DNA of 64,000 nucleotides from a virus (taxonomy: Duplodnaviria > Caudoviricetes), in IMG/VR virus record IMGVR_UViG_3300021400_001148, positions 290,810 through 354,809 of that record. One strand, 5' to 3'. Below the pieces are notes generated by a model. It was not told the origin of the DNA. It saw nothing but the letters and a program-made list of their open reading frames with translations, and made no database searches. A program made the translations under genes and the position numbers. Within the stretch, counting starts at the first letter, position 1, and every line of letters begins with the position of its first letter. This document shows, piece after piece, positions 36,254-64,000 of the stretch.

Positions 36254-36303
36254 AGGAAACAAACAGCAATTTAAACAAACAGGTTAGTTATGAATAGTTT
36301 TCT
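36254..36303 (+). promoter_or_regulatory. ACAGCAA leader stem-loop enclosing the start codon of the DUF2828-like gene
   Basis: AGGAAAC(36254-60) pairs GTTTTCT(36297-303); ACAGCAAT at 36263-70; ATG at 36290. Confidence 0.55.
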
Positions 36304-37936
36304 GAAGGCAGCACAAACTTCCGAGGGAAGTGCTTATACTGAGAATGGTGCAATCTCTTACGCGTCAACTGGTTCCGAACTTGTCGACCAGTTTGGAAAG
36401 GCCGGGGCATATCGTGGCCGTGACATTTCTGTGGTTTTTGATGAACAGGCAAGACTCTACAACGAGAATCCAGAGGCGGCAATCAAGTTCCCGTTTTATC
36501 TTCGTCTTATCACTCGTCAGGTGAAACTCGAAAACGGAGAAAAAACAGAAAAAGTCCAGAGGGGTGCCGGTTCCCGTGATGAGGCGTACAAAAGGCTTCT
36601 GTGGTTTGCGGAATATCAGCCCGATGTTTTTTACCGTAACCTTCCCCTTCTTCCTCTTATAGGTTCGTGGAAGGATATTTGGCAAATTCTTTCCCTTGAC
36701 ATGGATAATCACAATGTGATTAACCATTCAAAGGTGTACGGGGTCATTGCTGATGGTATTGTCAATGAGCACACTACGGACCTTGCAAGGAAGTATCTCC
36801 CTCGCATCAGGTCTGAAAAGAAGTGTACCACCCCGTGGGCAAAAAATACTAATCGTCTCGCAAAGGAGTTTGTGAATTTCCTTAATCGGGTTCTTCCTGA
36901 TGGTTACACTTATTCTGATTACCGCGAACTGAAATCTGAGGGTAAAGCACATAAGTTCCAGCAGTATATAACCAAGGGGCTGTATGATAGTATAGATTTT
37001 AAGACAATTCCCGGAAAGGCGCTGTTGAACCTTGTTTCAGGAGCATTTTTAACAAAACACGGCCTACTGGACAAGTATACCGAGTGGCTCAAGTCACAAC
37101 CAACGGTGAAATTCAATGGATATCCATACGAACTTGGGGTTAAATTGTATAACGGTGGGAAATCTCTTGCTGTAAGGATTACCGTTGACAAACAGTTCGA
37201 AACCCTTATCGAAACCGGGAAAAAGGATGGCGGTGCAATCAAGGGAAATGTTTGGTGCGCACTTGATACAAGTGGTTCGATGATGGCAAGAATTAATGGA
37301 AATACACTTTCACCTTACATCGTGTGCAAATCACTTGGCATATACTTTTCCACATTGAATGAAGGCGCATTCCATAAGAATGTTATTATGTTTGACAATT
37401 TCAGTCGAATTAAACAACTTTCAGGGTCTTTTTCGGAGATGTGGGAACAGATTCCGCAAAATGCTATGGGTTCCACAAACTTCCAGAGCGTTGTAGACGA
37501 GATTGTTCGGGTTAGGAAAGCAAAGCCGGAAATCCCACTTTCGGATTACCCTTCCACACTTCTTGTGGTGTCGGATATGCAGTTTAACCCTGCCGGCTCT
37601 TACACATGGGAAGAAAGGACGGCATCACAATCTGATATTGAAACAAATATCAATGCGGCAAAGAGGAAACTTCGCCAAGAATTTCCAGATGATTGGGTTG
37701 AAGGTTTCAAGTTCGTTTGGTGGAATGTAGCCGGCCGTCCAACCGATGATTTCCCAGCAACACTTGACCACGGCGGAAGTTATTTCTTCTCCGGTTTTGA
37801 TGGCGCGGTTATCTCACTGCTTCTTGGCAGTCAGACAGAAGTGGTAGATAAGACTACTGGTGAAAAGCGTCAGCCTACCGCAGAGGAATTGGTGGACGCC
37901 GCATTGAACCAAGAAATTCTTTCACTTGTTAAGTGA
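36290..37936 (+). CDS. DUF2828/TROVE-like protein with C-terminal vWA domain
   Basis: TENGA.SY.STG N-terminus; RGAG.R; GSWKD; MIDAS DTSGS; STNF; SDMQF; WNV; SGF. Confidence 0.85.
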   Translation: MNSFLKAAQTSEGSAYTENGAISYASTGSELVDQFGKAGAYRGRDISVVFDEQARLYNENPEAAIKFPFYLRLITRQVKLENGEKTEKVQRGAGSRDEAYKRLLWFAEYQPDVFYRNLPLLPLIGSWKDIWQILSLDMDNHNVINHSKVYGVIADGIVNEHTTDLARKYLPRIRSEKKCTTPWAKNTNRLAKEFVNFLNRVLPDGYTYSDYRELKSEGKAHKFQQYITKGLYDSIDFKTIPGKALLNLVSGAFLTKHGLLDKYTEWLKSQPTVKFNGYPYELGVKLYNGGKSLAVRITVDKQFETLIETGKKDGGAIKGNVWCALDTSGSMMARINGNTLSPYIVCKSLGIYFSTLNEGAFHKNVIMFDNFSRIKQLSGSFSEMWEQIPQNAMGSTNFQSVVDEIVRVRKAKPEIPLSDYPSTLLVVSDMQFNPAGSYTWEERTASQSDIETNINAAKRKLRQEFPDDWVEGFKFVWWNVAGRPTDDFPATLDHGGSYFFSGFDGAVISLLLGSQTEVVDKTTGEKRQPTAEELVDAALNQEILSLVK

Positions 37937-58598: not shown

Positions 58599-59188
58599 TC
58601 CTCAAGGAAGAGGATTTGAGAAAAGAAAAACTCGTATTCAATAAGGAATTGATTCCAATCAAATACGACTTGAAAACATTTTTTGCTGCCACTCACGAGC
58701 CGCTTTATATTACCAGACTCAACGGTGCTGATAGAATTTGTGTGTATGTTCAGTTTGATGCATACCCTTCCGGTGTGGGAGAGGTTCTCATGGAGCACTA
58801 TGAAACTTACGAGAAGGCCCTCAATCTTGTAGTGGGGGGAAGCGTGGAGGGCCTCTGTAGTGGTTATCAAAGTATACTTGAAAGCAGGAGAACCGACATA
58901 GCCCTCCATAGGTTTGGAGATGTGTCTGGGTTCAATGAGGAGTATTCGTATCTTTTTACGGATGGCAGATGGTGGGTAAGGTTTAATGATGTGTTCTACA
59001 GCCTCCGCTCCCGACTTGAAAATGCCGGTATTGACTGGGATGGTGTATTTAAGGTGTTTCTCCCTCTTGAAGATGTCCTTGGGAAAGGTCTGAAGGAGAG
59101 GTTCGAGAGTGTCTCCGAAATGAGTGAAGAGGAAAAGAAGAACCTTCAGTCTACAATTAAGGAATTTCAAAAGCAGAAATTGAACTAA
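58571..59188 (+). CDS. phage hypothetical protein (MGTR...D.YP..VG family)
   Basis: MGTRGNI, YVQFDAYPSGVG, EEYSYLF. Confidence 0.6.
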   Translation: MGTRGNIAVILKEEDLRKEKLVFNKELIPIKYDLKTFFAATHEPLYITRLNGADRICVYVQFDAYPSGVGEVLMEHYETYEKALNLVVGGSVEGLCSGYQSILESRRTDIALHRFGDVSGFNEEYSYLFTDGRWWVRFNDVFYSLRSRLENAGIDWDGVFKVFLPLEDVLGKGLKERFESVSEMSEEEKKNLQSTIKEFQKQKLN

Positions 59189-59299
59189 TTTTTGTATATT
59201 TGTAGTGTCATTTAGTTGGCTGGTGGAGGTGGGGGTCAAGGACTCCTGTTAACTTGAAATCGGTTGAATGTCTGATTTCAGGTTCAAAGAAAACAGGAT

Positions 59300-60178
59300 A
59301 TGGAGCGAACAAACCTGAAGATAAATGAGAATGGTTTAAAGGATATTGTTGGCCACATCACCCGGGAGGTTCTTTTTGAAACGCTTCCGAAACAAGACGC
59401 GGCCGGCAATATCTACGCCTCCCTTTTGGAAAGTAAACCTTATATCGTAAAAGAAGGCCTAATTCATTCTTATCCGATGAAGAATGTGGTTTCTGCTTTG
59501 AAATCTTTGTTTACCCTAACCACTGCGGGCAGCAAAGAAGAAGGGAATCGAATACTTTATTTTCTGGACAAGGGGCTGCATTCTTGCAACGGGTTGATTT
59601 CTCTGAACAAATACAGCGAAAATAACACAGAACGGATAGAGATAAAGGTTAGCAAAAACGACTTCAATCAGAATGATTTTGACAAATATCTTTTAAAATA
59701 CGGGTGGTTTTGCAGCATATCCCAGAGGCTGGAAGGGTATGATAACCTTGTAAGGTTTATATACGAGAAAAAATTTGATGTCGATGTCACCGACGAGGTG
59801 ATTAAAAACCAATACCTCTATCATATATGCCCGAACATATATTTGAACAAGATTAACACGGTCGGGCTTAAACCGAAAGTTTCTTCTTGGAACGCCTTTT
59901 CAAATCCAGAAAGAGTATATTTCTTTTTGAAAGAATTGTCTCACGAGGATTTTGTTTTGTGGGCTGAGAACTTCAGTTTTGGGAAGAAAGTAAACCACAC
60001 CCTGAATGACGGCTGGTCTTTGCTTAGGGTAGATGTTTCCAGTCTGACGAATAATCCTACTTTCTATCTTGACCCGAGAATGAGGAACGGTGTGTATACA
60101 ACGGATACAATTTCCCCGGAAAACATTGAAATTGTCGATTATTTGCCGGAAGAAGATATTTTTTATAAAAATTGGTGA
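59300..60178 (+). CDS. ART-fold (Tpt1/KptA-like) protein with N-terminal INE helix motif
   Basis: YLYH.....I...GLKP...RVYF...LLRVD...VYT...ISPENI. Confidence 0.55.
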   Translation: MERTNLKINENGLKDIVGHITREVLFETLPKQDAAGNIYASLLESKPYIVKEGLIHSYPMKNVVSALKSLFTLTTAGSKEEGNRILYFLDKGLHSCNGLISLNKYSENNTERIEIKVSKNDFNQNDFDKYLLKYGWFCSISQRLEGYDNLVRFIYEKKFDVDVTDEVIKNQYLYHICPNIYLNKINTVGLKPKVSSWNAFSNPERVYFFLKELSHEDFVLWAENFSFGKKVNHTLNDGWSLLRVDVSSLTNNPTFYLDPRMRNGVYTTDTISPENIEIVDYLPEEDIFYKNW

Positions 60179-60252: not shown

Positions 60253-60381
60253 ATGACACGGTTCAATAACATTAAAAGAAGCACATCCAAGTTTGAAGAG
60301 AAACTCGGAGGCTTATTCGTGTCAAGGAGTTATGATGCCCCACGAGCACACGAGACGCGAAGGCGAGAATTGAAGAAGTAG
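60253..60381 (+). CDS. 42-aa Arg-rich putative leader peptide
   Basis: MTRFNNIKRS...ETRRRELKK after a TATTTAT motif and before a terminator. Confidence 0.35.
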   Translation: MTRFNNIKRSTSKFEEKLGGLFVSRSYDAPRAHETRRRELKK

Positions 60382-60434
60382 ATGCAGGAACTCCCCGCAC
60401 ATAGGTTTCTAACCACTATATACATTCTTTCTTC

Positions 60435-60473
60435 AACCTCCCTCGCAGTCCCAACTAAGATGGAGGTTTTTTT
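60435..60473 (+). terminator. terminator or attenuator hairpin
   Basis: AACCTCC/GGAGGTT plus T-run. Confidence 0.6.
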
Positions 60474-60492
60474 GTGGGCTTAGATTCTAATT

Positions 60493-60537
60493 TGCGCCGA
60501 GTTTCCCAGAGATTAAAATATTGTTTGTATATTTGCA
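60493..60537 (+). promoter_or_regulatory. TGCGCC-N29-TATATTTG promoter of the RNA island
   Basis: Boxes at 60493-98 and 60528-35. Confidence 0.75.
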
Positions 60538-60562
60538 TTGTCAAACGACACGAAGGCAAGAC

Positions 60563-60634
60563 ACTTCCATAGTTCAACGGATAGAACGGAAGTTTCCTAA
60601 ACTTTAAATCGAGGTTCGATTCCTCGTGGGAGTA
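60563..60634 (+). tRNA. tRNA-Arg(CCT)
   Basis: Cloverleaf; GAAGT-TTCCTAA-ACTTT; GGTTCGATTCC. Confidence 0.9.
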
Positions 60635-60652
60635 CATAGTTCATTGAAATAC

Positions 60653-60838
60653 AAAAAAAACATTCGGTAGAAATTGCAGGTTCAAGGCCTGTTCTGAGGC
60701 GGATGACGGCGAACTAGGATGTATCTTGATAGTGTTAAATCCCGTGCCAGCCTTGTTAGGGAGTTGCTGTTAAGTAAGGTCGGCTACTGATAAAACTGCT
60801 AATCGTAGCGCTGCGATAAAGTATGAATGTTTTTTTTT
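60653..60838 (+). ncRNA. structured RNA A with T-arm-like hairpin
   Basis: 13-bp closing stem A8CATTC/GAATGT8; GCAGG-TTCAAGG-CCTGT. Confidence 0.5.
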
Positions 60839-60842
60839 AGAT

Positions 60843-60984
60843 TTAACTAACCGAGGTTCAAGAAAGCTGTGGTAATTTGCATTAAGTCCATGGAAATCCT
60901 TGAGACGGAGCCCTAAGTTGAATGCAATCGACAAGAAAGGTAGATGTGGGGGTCGCTGGAACTGCGATAGGGTAGGTTAGTTAA
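60843..60984 (+). ncRNA. structured RNA B
   Basis: Perfect 10-bp closing stem TTAACTAACC/GGTTAGTTAA; internal TTGCATT/AATGCAA. Confidence 0.5.
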
Positions 60985-60989
60985 CATAT

Positions 60990-61063
60990 GCCTCCATAGC
61001 TCAGTTGAATAGAGCGTCTGGCTACGAACCAGGAGGTCCGAGGTTTGAATCCTCGTGGGGGTA
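60990..61063 (+). tRNA. tRNA-Arg(ACG)
   Basis: Cloverleaf; TCTGG-CTACGAA-CCAGG; T-loop TTTGAAT. Confidence 0.9.
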
Positions 61064-61070
61064 CAAAATC

Positions 61071-61159
61071 TGCGGTTTAAAAAACCTTCAGGCGGCTGAA
61101 AAGGGTAAAACCGATGTGAGGTTAAGGCTGACCCTCGCAACCCGTTAGGGTAAACCGCA
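61071..61159 (+). ncRNA. structured RNA C
   Basis: 9-bp closing stem TGCGGTTTA/TAAACCGCA with three internal hairpins. Confidence 0.5.
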
Positions 61160-61170
61160 ACGGAAAATAT

Positions 61171-61386
61171 GAGCAAAGCCCCCGGGGGCGGAATGAAAAC
61201 CGTTAGATTGGTCCGGGGTGGTGCTGAAAGTAGTGTAAAAACAGGATAGTGATGCGGACTGCGCAATCCCGCACACTTCCTGAGTCGGTAACAAGACACC
61301 GGTTTGTGGGGAGTCGAGGCCCCCGTTGACGGGAGGACCGCGAAATCAGGAAAAACGCTAGTGGTTCGAATCCACCTTGCTCACCA
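61171..61386 (+). ncRNA. tRNA-mimic RNA D (~216 nt)
   Basis: GAGCAA/TTGCTC acceptor stem, GTGGTTCGAATCCAC T-arm, encoded ACCA end, large structured interior. Confidence 0.6.
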
Positions 61387-61408
61387 ATATAGTTCTTTGA
61401 AAATATAG

Positions 61409-61468
61409 GAAGACTTACAGCAATGTTAGAATTATGTCATGATTACAGAAGAGTACGTGTCTTCACCA
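61409..61468 (+). ncRNA. ACAGCAA small RNA E
   Basis: GAAGAC-TT-ACAGCAAT...GTCTTC-ACCA. Confidence 0.55.
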
Positions 61469-61500
61469 GAAAAGAAAAGCCTTCCTTAAAAATATCCGAA

Positions 61501-61652
61501 GATGTGTTGAAACGCGGCACAGACCACAGTAAGCCGGGAGACACGAGGGAATAGTCTAATTCTCCCGGAGGGCCAAGTCAGTGACGACTGCCAAGTCCCT
61601 TCTCAGACCGCATATAAAAGGCAGAACGGAGACGGTCCGGTTGCCATACATC
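61501..61652 (+). ncRNA. structured RNA F
   Basis: GATGTG/TACATC closing stem; CCGGGAGA/TCTCCCGG, GACC/GGTC, GGCA/TGCC. Confidence 0.45.
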
Positions 61653-61692
61653 TCTTTGGAAATATCAAGAAAGCTTACAAGCGCGTCGCCGA

Positions 61693-61766
61693 GGACTGGA
61701 ATAATGGCACACGCACCGGGACGAAGTCCAGTTTGTACCCCGGGGTCAGGTTAGCTTTGCCTGACA
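61693..61766 (+). ncRNA. pseudoknot-like element G
   Basis: GGACTGGA/TCCAGTTT stem; loop CCGGG pairs downstream CCCGG; then GTCAGG/CCTGAC hairpin. Confidence 0.35.
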
Positions 61767-61769
61767 TAT

Positions 61770-61842
61770 GCTCCGGTAGCTCAGTGGACAGAGCAACAGC
61801 CTTCTAAGCTGTGGGTCCTGCGTTCGAATCGCAGCCGGAGTA
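61770..61842 (+). tRNA. tRNA-Arg(TCT)
   Basis: Cloverleaf; ACAGC-CTTCTAA-GCTGT. Confidence 0.92.
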
Positions 61843-61864
61843 CGAAACAAAGTTTTTGAATTTT

Positions 61865-61909
61865 TGCGCCGAAGATGCAAACATATGAAAAAATGTTTGT
61901 ATATTTGCA
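61865..61909 (+). promoter_or_regulatory. TGCGCC-N29-TATATTTG promoter
   Basis: Boxes at 61865-70 and 61900-07. Confidence 0.75.
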
Positions 61910-61944
61910 AAACAAAACGAGATAGTTCTTTGAAAAATAGAAAA

Positions 61945-62765
61945 TGGCGGGCTTCCCGTCAATAGGATAACCTGCGAATACATAAGCAGGAAAAGTTGGG
62001 GTGAGTTGTTCACGAGATAAGCACCCCGGCGGAGGATGAAAGTCCTCTCCGTGAGAAAGCCGTTCTTTAAGCCCTTTGTGGCGTAGGTTCGTGCAGGGCC
62101 GATAGCATTGGGTGGAGGCGTCAACCGCGTCTCCTTGGGAGGTAACTCCGACACAGCGGAACGCATAAACTCCGAAAGATTGCCAGTCTTACAGAGTTTG
62201 TGAAGAAAGTTTTAATCGTCCTATTCAGCAGCCAATGCTGTGTGCTGTGTGGCAACAGTATCAGAAATGGTAGGAGGAATGAATGAGTATAGTAAGTAGC
62301 CTTGGCCGGTGAAAGCAGAAAGGTGTACATACCTACGCTACTCAAAAGGTAGTATGGTATTGGAGCACAGCCACATCTTTCAAAACGGTTAATCTTGTGA
62401 GATATTTGAAGAAATTTTAAATATTCAAAACAAGCAAAAGTGCTGTGCACTCTGTGTGACAATGCAGTTATCCACCTGATGCAATATGGTGGCTGCCGAG
62501 AGTACCGCAAGGAAATCGCAGAAACGAACGGAGTATGCAACTTGTCGGAGGGTCGCGCCTCCTCATCCCGCAAGGAGCAAGGGCTGAAACAAGTAATTTA
62601 TATAGCACAGAGTAGTTGTTGCGGAACTTAAATCCGTCTGCATCTCGCCTATCTTTGGAAACAAGGATGTGTTCTAGTCCCGAAAGGGATGAAAATGGCG
62701 AGCGATGAGGGTCAAGACTCAGCCCAAATCATTTGGCTCATTGAGGGCGAAACCTCGTTGGGTCA
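61945..62765 (+). ncRNA. large ornate RNA, GOLLD/ROOL-like
   Basis: ~800 nt with no credible ORF; many GNRA hairpins; long-range pairs such as AATAGGAT/GTCCTATT and GTGCTGTGT/ATATAGCAC; among tRNAs. Confidence 0.55.
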
Positions 62766-62768
62766 CAA

Positions 62769-62874
62769 ATAGCCCCAGTGTGATGGCGTAGTCGCCCGTG
62801 GCCGGTCATTGTTTTCCTCCTTCTTACCCGACCGGCGTTTTATTTGTTCGGGTGCGGCTTTAACTGGGGGTTAT
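62769..62874 (+). ncRNA. rod-like RNA I with pyrimidine (CCUCCUU) loop
   Basis: AGCCCCAGT/ACTGGGGGTT and GCCGGTC/GACCGGC stems. Confidence 0.55.
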
Positions 62875-62947
62875 GGGAGAGTAGCGCAATGGTTAGAGCA
62901 ATTGACTGTTAATCAATAGGTTATAGGTTCGAGTCCTATCTCTCCCG
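62875..62947 (+). tRNA. tRNA-Asn(GTT)
   Basis: Cloverleaf; ATTGA-CTGTTAA-TCAAT. Confidence 0.92.
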
Positions 62948-62964
62948 CACAAGTTCATTGAAAG

Positions 62965-63184
62965 TTCTGGTTCTGGTCCATCCTCAGGGAGGGGATGCCG
63001 GCCGGAGAAGTGACAAAGAGAATGGCCAAGTATAAAATTGCCGCCAACTGCAGTGGTGTTAAATAATATACCGGACCAAAGGTTGAGTAACTCAATATCT
63101 GGCATTGACTATAGCACGCGCCAGTGTAAAAAACCTCCGTGAAAGGTGCAAATCTAAGGCACATCTACTTCTTTTGAACCAGAA
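62965..63184 (+). ncRNA. structured RNA J
   Basis: 9-bp closing stem TTCTGGTTC/GAACCAGAA; TGGTCC/GGACCA; CATCCTC/GGGGATG. Confidence 0.5.
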
Positions 63185-63187
63185 TAA

Positions 63188-63276
63188 GTTTTCGGGTCGC
63201 CCCCGGAAACAGCCGTGACAGGTGTTGGAAGTTGACACGCCCACAAGGGAGAACCATTTCGCTAATGGGTTGCGGC
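63188..63276 (+). ncRNA. structured element K (hairpin plus 4-way junction)
   Basis: GTTTTCGGG/CCCGGAAAC; GCCGTGAC/GTTGCGGC closing three small arms. Confidence 0.4.
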
Positions 63277-63300
63277 GCTAAATCAGAGGTCTTTGACAAT

Positions 63301-63552
63301 ACTGAGGAAATTTACAGCTGTACTGCGAACGGCCCCGCAAGGGCTTGAAGATGTCTCCTGTACAGACACGCATAGTTTCCGGCAATCCCTTACCGTCGTG
63401 ATGATGGTAGAACTCACCGCATATATCGTGATGCAGGAGAAATGGTGATTCGCCCGGGCAATGGAATTCATCGCTCCATTCGGGCAGTTACTCTTCCGAA
63501 AAGGAAAGAGTCGGAAACTGTGTATGAGATGGTATTTGGCTAGTATTTCGGC
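63301..63552 (+). ncRNA. structured RNA L with pseudoknot
   Basis: 13-bp GCATAGTTTCCGG/TCGGAAACTGTGT; 9-bp TCTCCTGTA/TGCAGGAGA crossing it. Confidence 0.5.
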
Positions 63553-63652
63553 ACTCTATGGGACTCATTTCTCCGCGAATAGCAGAGAGTAATGGCTAGG
63601 GCATCCTTAAAATGGGTGATAACCACAATAAATGCTGGAAGAAAACCTGTTT

Positions 63653-63688
63653 GTCCCCGTAGCTCAGTTGGTAGAGCACCACACTTTT
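63653..63688 (+). tRNA. tRNA-Lys(TTT) 5' exon (3' exon beyond window)
   Basis: GTCCCCG-TA-GCTC-AGTTGGTA-GAGC-A-CCACA-CT-TTT followed by non-tRNA sequence. Confidence 0.75.
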
Positions 63689-64000
63689 GAAAAATTGAAA
63701 CTTTGTGTTGAAAGATACATTGAAAATCCTCCCTAATTCGGTGAAGACTTAACAGATTAGTAAAACCATGGACTTTATGGCACAAATAGGAACCCATCAT
63801 ATGGTAATCCTTAAATCCATAAACAAAACTTAATTGAAAGGGGATAGTGTAATGTGACCCTACTTCGTGGTTAAATTTACTAATGCTGATGTTAATACCG
63901 AGCCAATGTTATTTCGTGCAACCCAATAACACCTTTGAGTGTTTGAAAACTTGACTATTAAATTAGTATACAGTTGCAATAAGCGAATAGACAGTGTGTA
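63689..64000 (+). mobile_element. group I intron (partial) in the tRNA anticodon loop
   Basis: P-like AATTCGGTGAA(63735-45), Q-like AATACCGAGCC(63894-904), P4 TTCGGT/ACCGAG, extended P5. Confidence 0.8.

Follow-up and report, generated by a model that had tools for sequence, protein, structure and literature searches.

Clusters of transfer RNA (tRNA) genes in phages are known to encode further RNAs. The tRNA operon of phage T4 also specifies two small stable RNAs of unknown function with sizes of 119-139 nt. These are rnaC (species 1), with a tRNA-type T-arm at its 3' end, and rnaD (species 2), which ends in CCA. Both species are processed by RNase P. GOLLD and ROOL are larger RNAs of phage tRNA islands which form RNA-only cages of unknown function. 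GOLLD occurs in phages and prophages, often by tRNA islands, is often longer than 800 nt and has a conserved 3' and a variable 5' part (bioRxiv 10.1101/2024.12.08.627333). Furthermore, theta ribozymes, which are minimal hepatitis delta virus-like ribozymes, follow the tRNAs of gut phages infecting Bacteroidota (Kienbeck et al. 2024, PMC10879173). Here we analyzed positions 60563-63652 of a 64,000-nt stretch of DNA (the window), which forms the final 64 kb of the 354,809-bp virus genome IMGVR_UViG_3300021400_001148 of IMG/VR. This region constitutes the core of an island of stable-RNA genes with a length of approximately 4.8 kb. It represents a richer case of a known phage feature, the island of tRNAs and non-coding RNAs, and no new kind of system.

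Compared with T4 and the GOLLD/ROOL islands, the non-tRNA RNAs are more numerous and more diverse, a boxA-like motif punctuates the array and an additional RNA family, here named J, is present. Instead of the two RNAs of T4 there are about ten of 60-787 nt, without sequence similarity to the T4 RNAs. One of these, unit D, resembles both T4 species as it combines a T-arm with an encoded CCA end.

The explanation we favour, with a probability of about 65% as a whole, is that of a promoter-driven stable-RNA island with boxA-type antitermination, from which RNAs are freed at the tRNAs. Three promoters (60526, 61898 and genome base 874) would drive co-oriented untranslated units. These would encode seven tRNAs, GOLLD, J, the CCA-ended tRNA-like D and several lineage-specific, helix-closed RNAs. 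The motif GTTC[AT]TTGAAA, located after promoters and tRNA 3' ends, would most likely recruit host NusB/NusE and thus render transcription Rho-resistant. Cuts at the tRNAs and at D by RNase P and 3' processing enzymes of the host may then release the intervening RNAs, the ends of which may be shielded by the closing helices. Direct support was obtained for the gene content, the identity of GOLLD, the conservation and covariation of J, the presence in RNA libraries, the enrichment of the motif and its position in ribosomal RNA (rRNA) leaders.

The first 99 bases of the record are identical to its last 99 bases, and the assembly is therefore circular. Since phage proteins are encoded in the window (baseplate wedge, DnaB-like helicase, NrdD and an SbcC-like protein), the analyzed region sits in a jumbo phage (355 kb). 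Judging by the promoter type and by the samples containing the sequence, the phage probably infects a bacterium of the Bacteroidota in the ruminant gut. A preliminary description of this DNA, made from the letters alone, had set the limits of the island at 60563 and 63652. The island is not bounded at 63652 but extends past the end of the window and, via the circular junction, as far as genome base ~1370. Beyond the junction follow the remainder of a tRNA-Lys gene, a gene of 111 amino acids (aa), a promoter, a gene-free stretch of 210 nt, tRNA-Leu(CAA) and a Leu-UAA-like tRNA. Together with three tRNA-Arg, tRNA-Asn and tRNA-Lys this amounts to seven tRNAs over the whole island.

The same description had called the region non-coding and GC-rich, and both statements held. 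The GC content was 47.2% compared to a genome mean of 41.3%, which is within the top 2.3% of 3.09-kb genome windows, and it was elevated across the whole island. The longest stop-to-stop frame (code 11) had 158 codons, within the bottom 1.3% of genome windows. It is extremely improbable that protein genes are hidden here as small open reading frames (ORFs) or as recoded genes. Recoding occurs in this phage group, as relatives carry suppressor tRNAs with the anticodons CUA, UCA and UUA. In this genome, however, neither a suppressor tRNA nor a transfer-messenger RNA (tmRNA) was found, and with any single stop codon read as sense the longest frame reached at most 232 codons, which is low for the genome. 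Additionally, the longest ORFs of the island run antisense to GOLLD and to tRNAs. The sole conserved candidate start, the ATG of a mini-ORF in J (MAKYKI...), was missing in relatives, and this candidate was rejected.

The two RNAs considered first, and a small hairpin adjacent to the second, are:

61954-62740, + strand: RNA of ~787 nt filed under GOLLD (Rfam RF02032), variable 5' half 61954-62317, conserved 3' half 62318-62725
62964-63186, + strand: unit J (core 63002-63176), with homologues and covariation; closing helix of 9 bp (62965-973/63176-184)
63188-63210, + strand: GC-rich hairpin in the minimum-energy fold, assigned to the start of K in the preliminary description; the J contig 62976-63214 stops just past it

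The stretch 61954-62740 was filed as a divergent GOLLD RNA because the full-length model match, the size, the variable 5' half, the phage context and the proximity of tRNAs fit this family. The RF02032 match at 62318-62725 covered model positions 1-416 of 416 with 86.1 bits (E 4e-22 for 60300-64000 and 9e-24 for the genome). It was the sole copy in the genome, and the same Rfam search gave no match in 14 control genomes. A long-range pairing of GOLLD (CTCTGTGT/GCACAGAG) was preserved, with a sequence departing from the consensus. In comparison with dinucleotide shuffles the stretch had a folding-energy z of -4.2 on the + strand versus -1.7 on the - strand. Whole GOLLD contigs were found in RNA libraries of two studies, 61957-62740 (X4) and 61954-62740 (X5), with lengths of 786 and 787 nt. 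The coinciding contig ends give a weak hint of real RNA ends. A tRNA-Arg precedes this RNA gene by 110 nt, and tRNA-Asn follows it after 134 nt.

The likeness to GOLLD and ROOL of other phage tRNA islands thus comprises the full model match, the size of ~787 nt, the non-matching 5' half, the flanking tRNAs and the RNA contigs. In contrast to these, the score here is below the cut-off, the carrier is a jumbo phage from ruminant gut samples with Bacteroidota-type promoters, and the gene has its own promoter with a boxA-like leader and is one among a dozen island RNAs. A GOLLD gene with promoter, candidate antitermination leader, defined neighbours and public RNA contigs offers a concrete study system. 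GOLLD was absent in the complete records of five relatives, and the content of the islands is therefore mosaic.

A sheep-gut metatranscriptome (X16) contained many diverged GOLLD-like contigs which were 85-95% alike. Some of these omitted or substituted the AU-rich linker 62319-62458. There seems to be a varied GOLLD population in ruminant-gut RNA libraries.

Unit J is, as judged by sequence comparison, a new conserved family of structured RNA. This is based on eight full members (a further one is truncated), on covariation and on the lack of a match in Rfam or in GenBank phages. All members are located in tRNA arrays of large phages. In relatives J is usually found directly upstream of tRNA-Leu(CAA), and its neighbours differ among phages. 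In the consensus fold 18 of 58 pairs showed compensatory double changes, compared to 8.6 +/- 1.8 in column shuffles (none of 500 reached 18) and to 1-7 when partners were slid by 1-3 columns. The core helices persisted after adding the two most distant members, and the interior long-range helices covaried. The sequence of the outer closing helix differed in every lineage while its arms covaried. The folding-energy z of J was -1.9 (dinucleotide shuffles). RNA contigs covered 62976-63214 (X4) and 62998-63173. A covariance model of J detected no further members. With J, the short list of RNAs from phage tRNA arrays gains a member that is conserved, shows covariation and is uncatalogued.

The transcription signals and tRNA genes of the region are arranged as follows:

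60526-60537, + strand: promoter P1, the 12-mer TGTATATTTGCA with a Bacteroidota-type -7 box (TAnnTTTG)
60563-60635, + strand: tRNA-Arg(CCU), found by ARAGORN and with 64 bits by the Rfam tRNA model; CCA not encoded
60639-60649, + strand: boxA-like copy 1 (GTTCATTGAAA), 4 nt after tRNA-Arg(CCU)
60990-61064, + strand: tRNA-Arg(ACG), ARAGORN and Rfam
61392-61402, + strand: boxA-like copy 2 (GTTCTTTGAAA), 5 nt after the CCA of unit D
61770-61843, + strand: tRNA-Arg(UCU), ARAGORN and Rfam
61898-61909, + strand: promoter P2, TGTATATTTGCA
61925-61935, + strand: boxA-like copy 3, ~16 nt past the -7 box of P2, in leader position
62875-62948, + strand: tRNA-Asn(GUU), ARAGORN and Rfam
62953-62963, + strand: boxA-like copy 4, after tRNA-Asn
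63653-64000, + strand: 5' exon and intron start of tRNA-Lys(UUU), ARAGORN with introns allowed; the gene ends at genome base 482
genome base 874, + strand: third island promoter, a copy of TGTATATTTGCA past the junction

Promoter copies are scattered over the genome, where TGTATATTTGCA was found 28 times in 355 kb, typically ahead of genes. Three of these copies lie in the island and all are orientated in + direction. The motif GTTC[AT]TTGAAA was present in nine copies in the 355 kb, four of them in the island and again all on the + strand. In the islands of relatives 48 copies were found in 755 kb. For 46 of these a tRNA was no more than 1 kb away. Nearly all shared the strand of the tRNA and followed either the tRNA at a distance of 3-9 nt or a promoter at ~10 nt.

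In rRNA operons, boxA elements in leader and spacer bind NusB/NusE and prevent Rho termination of the untranslated transcripts. Because of this arrangement, and because the motif takes the same position in 16S rRNA leaders, we regard GTTC[AT]TTGAAA as a putative boxA-type site, with odds slightly better than even. A scan of prokaryote genomes located the 14-mer AAGTTCTTTGAAAA upstream of 16S rRNA in three phyla, at 32 nt in a Mycoplasma, 132 nt in a Paenibacillus and 84 nt in a Thermoanaerobaculaceae genome. In the same scan 21 of 120 matches faced the end of the locus at a distance of less than 400 nt, and in many cases the contig ended there as well. Breaks at rRNA operons are typical of assemblies. 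For Bacteroidota, the 14-mer was found 80 nt upstream of tmRNA and ~340 nt upstream of the signal recognition particle (SRP) RNA. The oligonucleotide GTTCTTTGAAAACTGAAT, a standard nested primer in the 16S-23S spacer of mycoplasmas, has the same core (PMC4312986). A Bacteroidota boxA consensus was not found in the literature.

The similarity to rrn-type boxA (leader and spacer of E. coli rrn, lambda nut) consists of a short U-rich element which follows promoters and recurs between the genes of an untranslated operon, and of the identical 14-mer shared with 16S leaders from three phyla of bacteria. The phage copies differ in that many abut a tRNA 3' end, and binding of NusB/NusE is only predicted here. 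The trailers also set the island apart from the theta ribozymes. Both occupy the same niche, the tRNA 3' trailers of gut phages, but those analyzed here carry GTTC[AT]TTGAAA, and the Rfam models of self-cleaving ribozymes gave no match at E up to 10. We know of no description of boxA in phage arrays of tRNAs and non-coding RNAs. If phages borrow the antitermination of rRNA operons for long untranslated RNA operons, this would be a general point that can be tested.

Additional copies of these elements were noted outside the region. AAGTTCTTTGAAAA was located between Flavo-1 RNA and tmRNA in a Flavobacteriaceae genome (L162 178-812), and in a second genome of the Bacteroidota (L135 4345-4797) it preceded the SRP RNA. 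There are hints that stable-RNA genes of Bacteroidota use the element generally. A second small RNA locus of the phage, at genome positions 120593-121264 on the - strand, contains tRNA-Gln and a tRNA-Arg(ACG) that is interrupted by an intron of 462 nt. On the same strand as this locus, GTTCTTTGAAA is present at genome position 121228. Genome-wide, many promoter copies have an ATG 5-6 nt after TATATTTGCA (...TTTGCAATATG...), which suggests leaderless or near-leaderless messenger RNAs in this phage.

Part of the analyzed stretch was contained in 20 listed public runs, 12 of which are recorded as RNA, namely as metatranscriptomes from the gut of animals. We mapped the contigs of one DNA library and of three RNA libraries, each from a different study (study labels P3, P1 and P8). 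Unit D was covered at 100% identity by RNA contigs from all three studies (61172-61335, 61182-61333 and 61184-61345). The GOLLD and J contigs given above were likewise 100% identical, as were further RNA contigs, several of which ran across unit boundaries. The contig 60669-61040 (X5) bridged units A and B and the following tRNA, and 61504-61743 (X4) spanned the boundary proposed between F and G. At the end of the region, 63295-63923 (X5) and 63323-63923 (X4) extended from K/L into tRNA-Lys and its intron, and 63305-63601 (X16) covered K/L as well. The bridging of A-B-tRNA and of K/L-tRNA-intron is as expected for polycistronic precursors. Little or no contig cover was found for the flanking coding DNA (59000-60168), unit E and the rod-like hairpin downstream of GOLLD; absent cover proves nothing and is uninformative for the short unit E.

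Like the polycistronic operon of T4, the island has co-oriented genes behind a promoter, bridging contigs (which are not single molecules) and no internal terminators, as no intrinsic terminator-like site on the + strand was detected inside it. The preliminary description had proposed a polycistronic cassette array of about ten separate structured RNAs, mostly unclassified and released by tRNA processing. The array as such agrees with the co-oriented, promoter-driven and tRNA-interleaved arrangement and with the RNA contigs, and liberation by RNase P and RNase Z is plausible, while ten functional RNAs are not supported. One unit belongs to the known GOLLD family, J alone has homologues and covariation, and D was found in three RNA libraries; A-G, K and L are orphans with weak z values. 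The boundaries given for K and L disagreed with the RNA contigs. Since the K/L contigs start inside K as first defined and the J contig ends past the hairpin 63188-63210, these boundaries are probably wrong. Given the bridging contigs over A-B-tRNA, F-G and K/L-tRNA-Lys-intron, several of the proposed boundaries are unproven or wrong.

The remaining non-tRNA units are:

60653-60838, + strand: unit A, perfect 13-bp helix 60653-665/60825-837; z -1.9
60843-60984, + strand: unit B, perfect 10-bp helix 60843-852/60975-984; z -1.0
61071-61159, + strand: unit C, 89 nt, 9-bp helix 61071-079/61151-159 enclosing three hairpins, cloverleaf-like; z -2.7
61171-61386, + strand: unit D, 216 nt, tRNA-like; its ends pair over 7 bp, it has a T-arm (GTGG-TTCGAAT-CCAC) and encodes CCA, and its interior is large and folded; z -1.7
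61409-61468, + strand: unit E, 60-nt hairpin (GAAGAC/GTCTTC) with an ACCA end and a 6-bp closing helix in the minimum-energy fold; z -0.8; the weakest unit
61469-61769, + strand: F/G region, structured orphan with a degenerate boxA-like ATCTCTTTGGAAA at 61650; z -1.1 and -1.8
62769-62874, + strand: rod-like hairpin between GOLLD and tRNA-Asn, ~11-bp closing helix in the minimum-energy fold; z -2.0
63295-63652, + strand: K/L RNA, orphan structured stretch, contiguous with tRNA-Lys in RNA contigs; z +0.4 for K (as first defined) and -1.2 for L

The rod 62769-62874 consists of a 7-bp GC stem followed by GTTTTATTTG. All units are single-copy in the genome. As stated before, they are not copies of each other: no similarity was found among units A-L, nor to the intron family or the tmRNAs of relatives. 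The search with Rfam 15 in 60300-64000 gave GOLLD as its one non-tRNA match, and at E up to 10 none of the other units matched a catalogued tmRNA, RNase P RNA, Y RNA, riboswitch or ribozyme. Thus, the recommended Rfam check identified one known family, and most units are unclassified as had been assumed.

Homologues were searched for by blastn and nhmmer in ~820 kb of islands of relatives and in GenBank phages. The orphan units had no homologue by blastn in GenBank phages or by blastn and nhmmer in the relative G001 and 90 further loci, where only tRNAs, J and the intron were matched. By nhmmer only J and the tRNA-Lys intron had homologues in the islands of relatives, and a BLAST search of four more viral records did not reveal any homologue of an orphan unit. 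The proposed comparison of homologues thus succeeded for J, while A, B, C, D, E, F, G, K and L had none to compare. The folding energy was clearly better than that of shuffled controls in the GOLLD stretch (z -4.2) and modestly better in the other units, and for K (z +0.4) it was no better than that of shuffled sequence. In summary, the observation made in the preliminary description was largely confirmed and its interpretation partly supported: one known and one new family were found, and the rest is unproven.

Several candidate identities were rejected. For unit D a tmRNA was rejected, as there was no ARAGORN or Rfam call, position 3 pairs A-U instead of G3-U70 and no similarity to the tmRNAs of relatives was present. 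It was called neither as tRNA nor as tmRNA by ARAGORN and Rfam. A scan of relatives for D-like RNAs (T-arm, 7-bp stem and CCA, not a tRNA) gave one or two candidates; it was strict and missed D itself. Unit C was not recognized as tRNA by the covariance model and had no Rfam match at E up to 10. For unit A an assignment to YrlA/Y RNA, considered in view of the DUF2828/TROVE-like gene at 36290-37936, was dismissed, given only a chance-level DUF2693 match (E 5.6) over A and the Rfam result at E up to 10. A catalogued ribozyme or riboswitch was rejected for all units, as none had an Rfam match at that threshold.

Spacers closed by their own terminal helices of 6-13 bp had also been described. Perfect helices were confirmed in A (13 bp), B (10 bp), C (9 bp) and J (9 bp), and helices within predicted folds in D (7 bp), E (6 bp) and the rod (~11 bp). 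However, the number of long-range helices of at least 9 bp in the region is five, equal to the mean of genome windows (5.0 +/- 2.4). The unusual feature is that four helices of at least 9 bp tile the spacers end to end. A and B fill a spacer of 354 nt with gaps of 5-7 nt, C begins 6 nt past a tRNA and J begins right after the repeated motif. In relatives, 215 distinct inter-tRNA spacers of 80-400 nt were surveyed, with intron-bearing tRNAs removed; both helix arms had to lie no more than 15 nt from the ends of the spacer. Of these spacers, 37 were closed by perfect terminal helices of at least 7 bp, compared to 4.8 expected from shuffled sequences and 3.8 from random genome segments. For at least 9 bp the count was 13 versus 0.23 expected. 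A few of the helix-closed spacers were missed tRNA-like genes, most were not. This enrichment indicates that the helix-closed architecture is recurrent in the phage group, even though the modules are mostly lineage-specific. The enrichment of helix-closed spacer RNAs in tRNA arrays of large gut phages is a testable general point.

It was further considered that only the tRNAs, GOLLD and J are functional, with the orphans being co-transcribed debris such as decayed tRNAs, intron relics or old insertions. We consider this unlikely. Such a view is in line with the missing homologues, with the weak and strand-symmetric z values (K +0.4), with the entirely different island content between relatives and with a probable relic inside the island, the Leu-UAA-like tRNA with a 71-nt insert. 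Against debris speak the perfect helices of 9-13 bp tiling spacers A, B and C, with no more than 5-7 nt left to the neighbouring genes, and an architecture enriched ~8-fold or more in relatives. Furthermore, queries with the intron family and with tmRNA were empty in the orphans, no tRNA-like remnant was found by Rfam at E up to 10, GC content is raised island-wide and D is present at 100% identity in the RNA libraries of three studies.

The opposite view takes the units of jumbo-phage tRNA arrays as exchangeable autonomous RNA modules, sealed by helices, transcribed with a boxA/Nus system taken from rRNA operons and released by tRNA enzymes. A-G and K/L would then be functional and fast-evolving, and several undescribed RNA classes would exist besides J. 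This appears doubtful to us. If true, the orphans could, among other roles, serve as decoys for defence nucleases directed at tRNAs or act together with the GOLLD cage.

Alternatively, the closing helices might be terminal inverted repeats in DNA, belonging to small mobile cassettes which insert into tRNA arrays. The mosaic islands, the absence of GOLLD in five relatives and the varying neighbours of J would suit such cassettes. The X16 library contained a contig (60654-60819) with a 95%-identical copy of A and nine changes, in which the homology ends at the first base of the A helix, i.e. of the terminal repeat. Of the five changes listed, two turn G-U/U-G into A-U/C-G and one breaks a pair. 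However, all units are single-copy, and neither a transposase nor a target-site duplication was seen. Additionally, the terminal arms of J covary with differing sequence, as an RNA helix would, and so do its interior helices. We therefore regard mobile cassettes as very unlikely.

A number of points weigh against the promoter-driven, boxA-punctuated RNA island as we favour it. The GOLLD match of 86.1 bits is lower than the Rfam gathering score of 150. For boxA, the grounds are identity in sequence and position. Bacteroidota rRNA leaders were unreadable because contigs end there, and the copies in 16S leaders come from other phyla. As an alternative, a motif abutting tRNA 3' ends also fits a processing signal in tRNA trailers. 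The contigs give no strand, level or true RNA ends and are not single molecules. Folding energies of the small units were 1-2.7 standard deviations below dinucleotide shuffles, with the reverse strand about equal. Finally, 8 of the ~12 non-tRNA units (A, B, C, D, E, F/G, K/L and the rod) are without homologue, and there is thus no comparative support for their folds. We infer the antitermination, the route of processing and whatever function the orphan RNAs may have.

The tRNA set of the island (Arg x3, Asn, Lys and Leu) overlaps the targets of anticodon nucleases. Colicin D acts on Arg, colicin E5 on Asn and PrrC on Lys tRNA. Given this overlap, a role of the island tRNAs in the evasion of host defence is reasonable as speculation.

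The anticodon loop of tRNA-Lys(UUU) is interrupted by a 636-nt intron (ARAGORN, introns allowed), which lies mostly outside 60563-63652. By nhmmer 15 homologous introns were found in differing tRNAs of relatives, including Leu-UAA and Ser-UGA. The insert is a putative group I-like intron, sharing with the group I introns of bacterial and phage tRNA anticodon loops the insertion into the anticodon loop of tRNA-Lys(UUU). It differs in that the Intron_gpI scores were 13 bits for the tRNA-Lys intron (a cut piece) and 31 bits (E 3e-4) for the homologue of a relative, both below the Rfam gathering score of 50. The intron of tRNA-Arg(ACG) in the second small RNA locus belongs to the same family. In the relative G001 the counterpart of tRNA-Arg(UCU) is split by an insert of ~100 nt, whereas the copy here is intact.

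Just beyond the window, at genome positions 1208-1364, lies the type-II tRNA with a Leu-UAA-like anticodon loop. Its 71-nt insert is too short for a group I intron, and the 3' part of this insert was weakly similar to the 3' ends of the group I introns of relatives (E 0.004-0.08). Possibly this insert is what a deletion left behind, and the gene is a pseudogene. Many tRNAs with inserts of 45-105 nt were observed in relatives.

Relatives were reached via two flanking proteins and DNA patterns, which led to four viral records, 80 metagenome loci around the 111-aa gene and then seven viral loci. All of these loci have tRNA arrays beside the 111-aa gene, and in many of them tmRNA, suppressor tRNAs and tRNAs split by introns occur. 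The island content was wholly different between relatives. The tRNAs with suppressor-type anticodons CUA, UCA and UUA beside the 111-aa gene were found in L016, L018, L019, L066, L028, L048, L103 and L017, together with tmRNA genes. Stop-codon recoding seems to vary within the phage group. When synteny was followed via the upstream protein of 292 aa, the loci reached had no tRNAs, and a scan with a 1084-aa protein found no closer relative of the phage. Pfam gave no match for the flanking proteins of 292, 244 and 111 aa, and assignments to Tpt1/ART or peptidyl-tRNA hydrolase were therefore set aside.

Another small family of spacer RNAs with 124-137 nt was present in the tRNA arrays of relatives (L024 4771-4907, L035 5186-5309, L034 2640-2763 and L046 1529-1653). 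Between L024 and L035 the arms of the closing helix differ. This family does not include unit B and is unrelated to the units of the window analyzed here. Elsewhere in the window, at 36290-37936, a 548-aa protein matched DUF7788 (E 5e-16) and, slightly under the cut-off, DUF2828 (27 bits).

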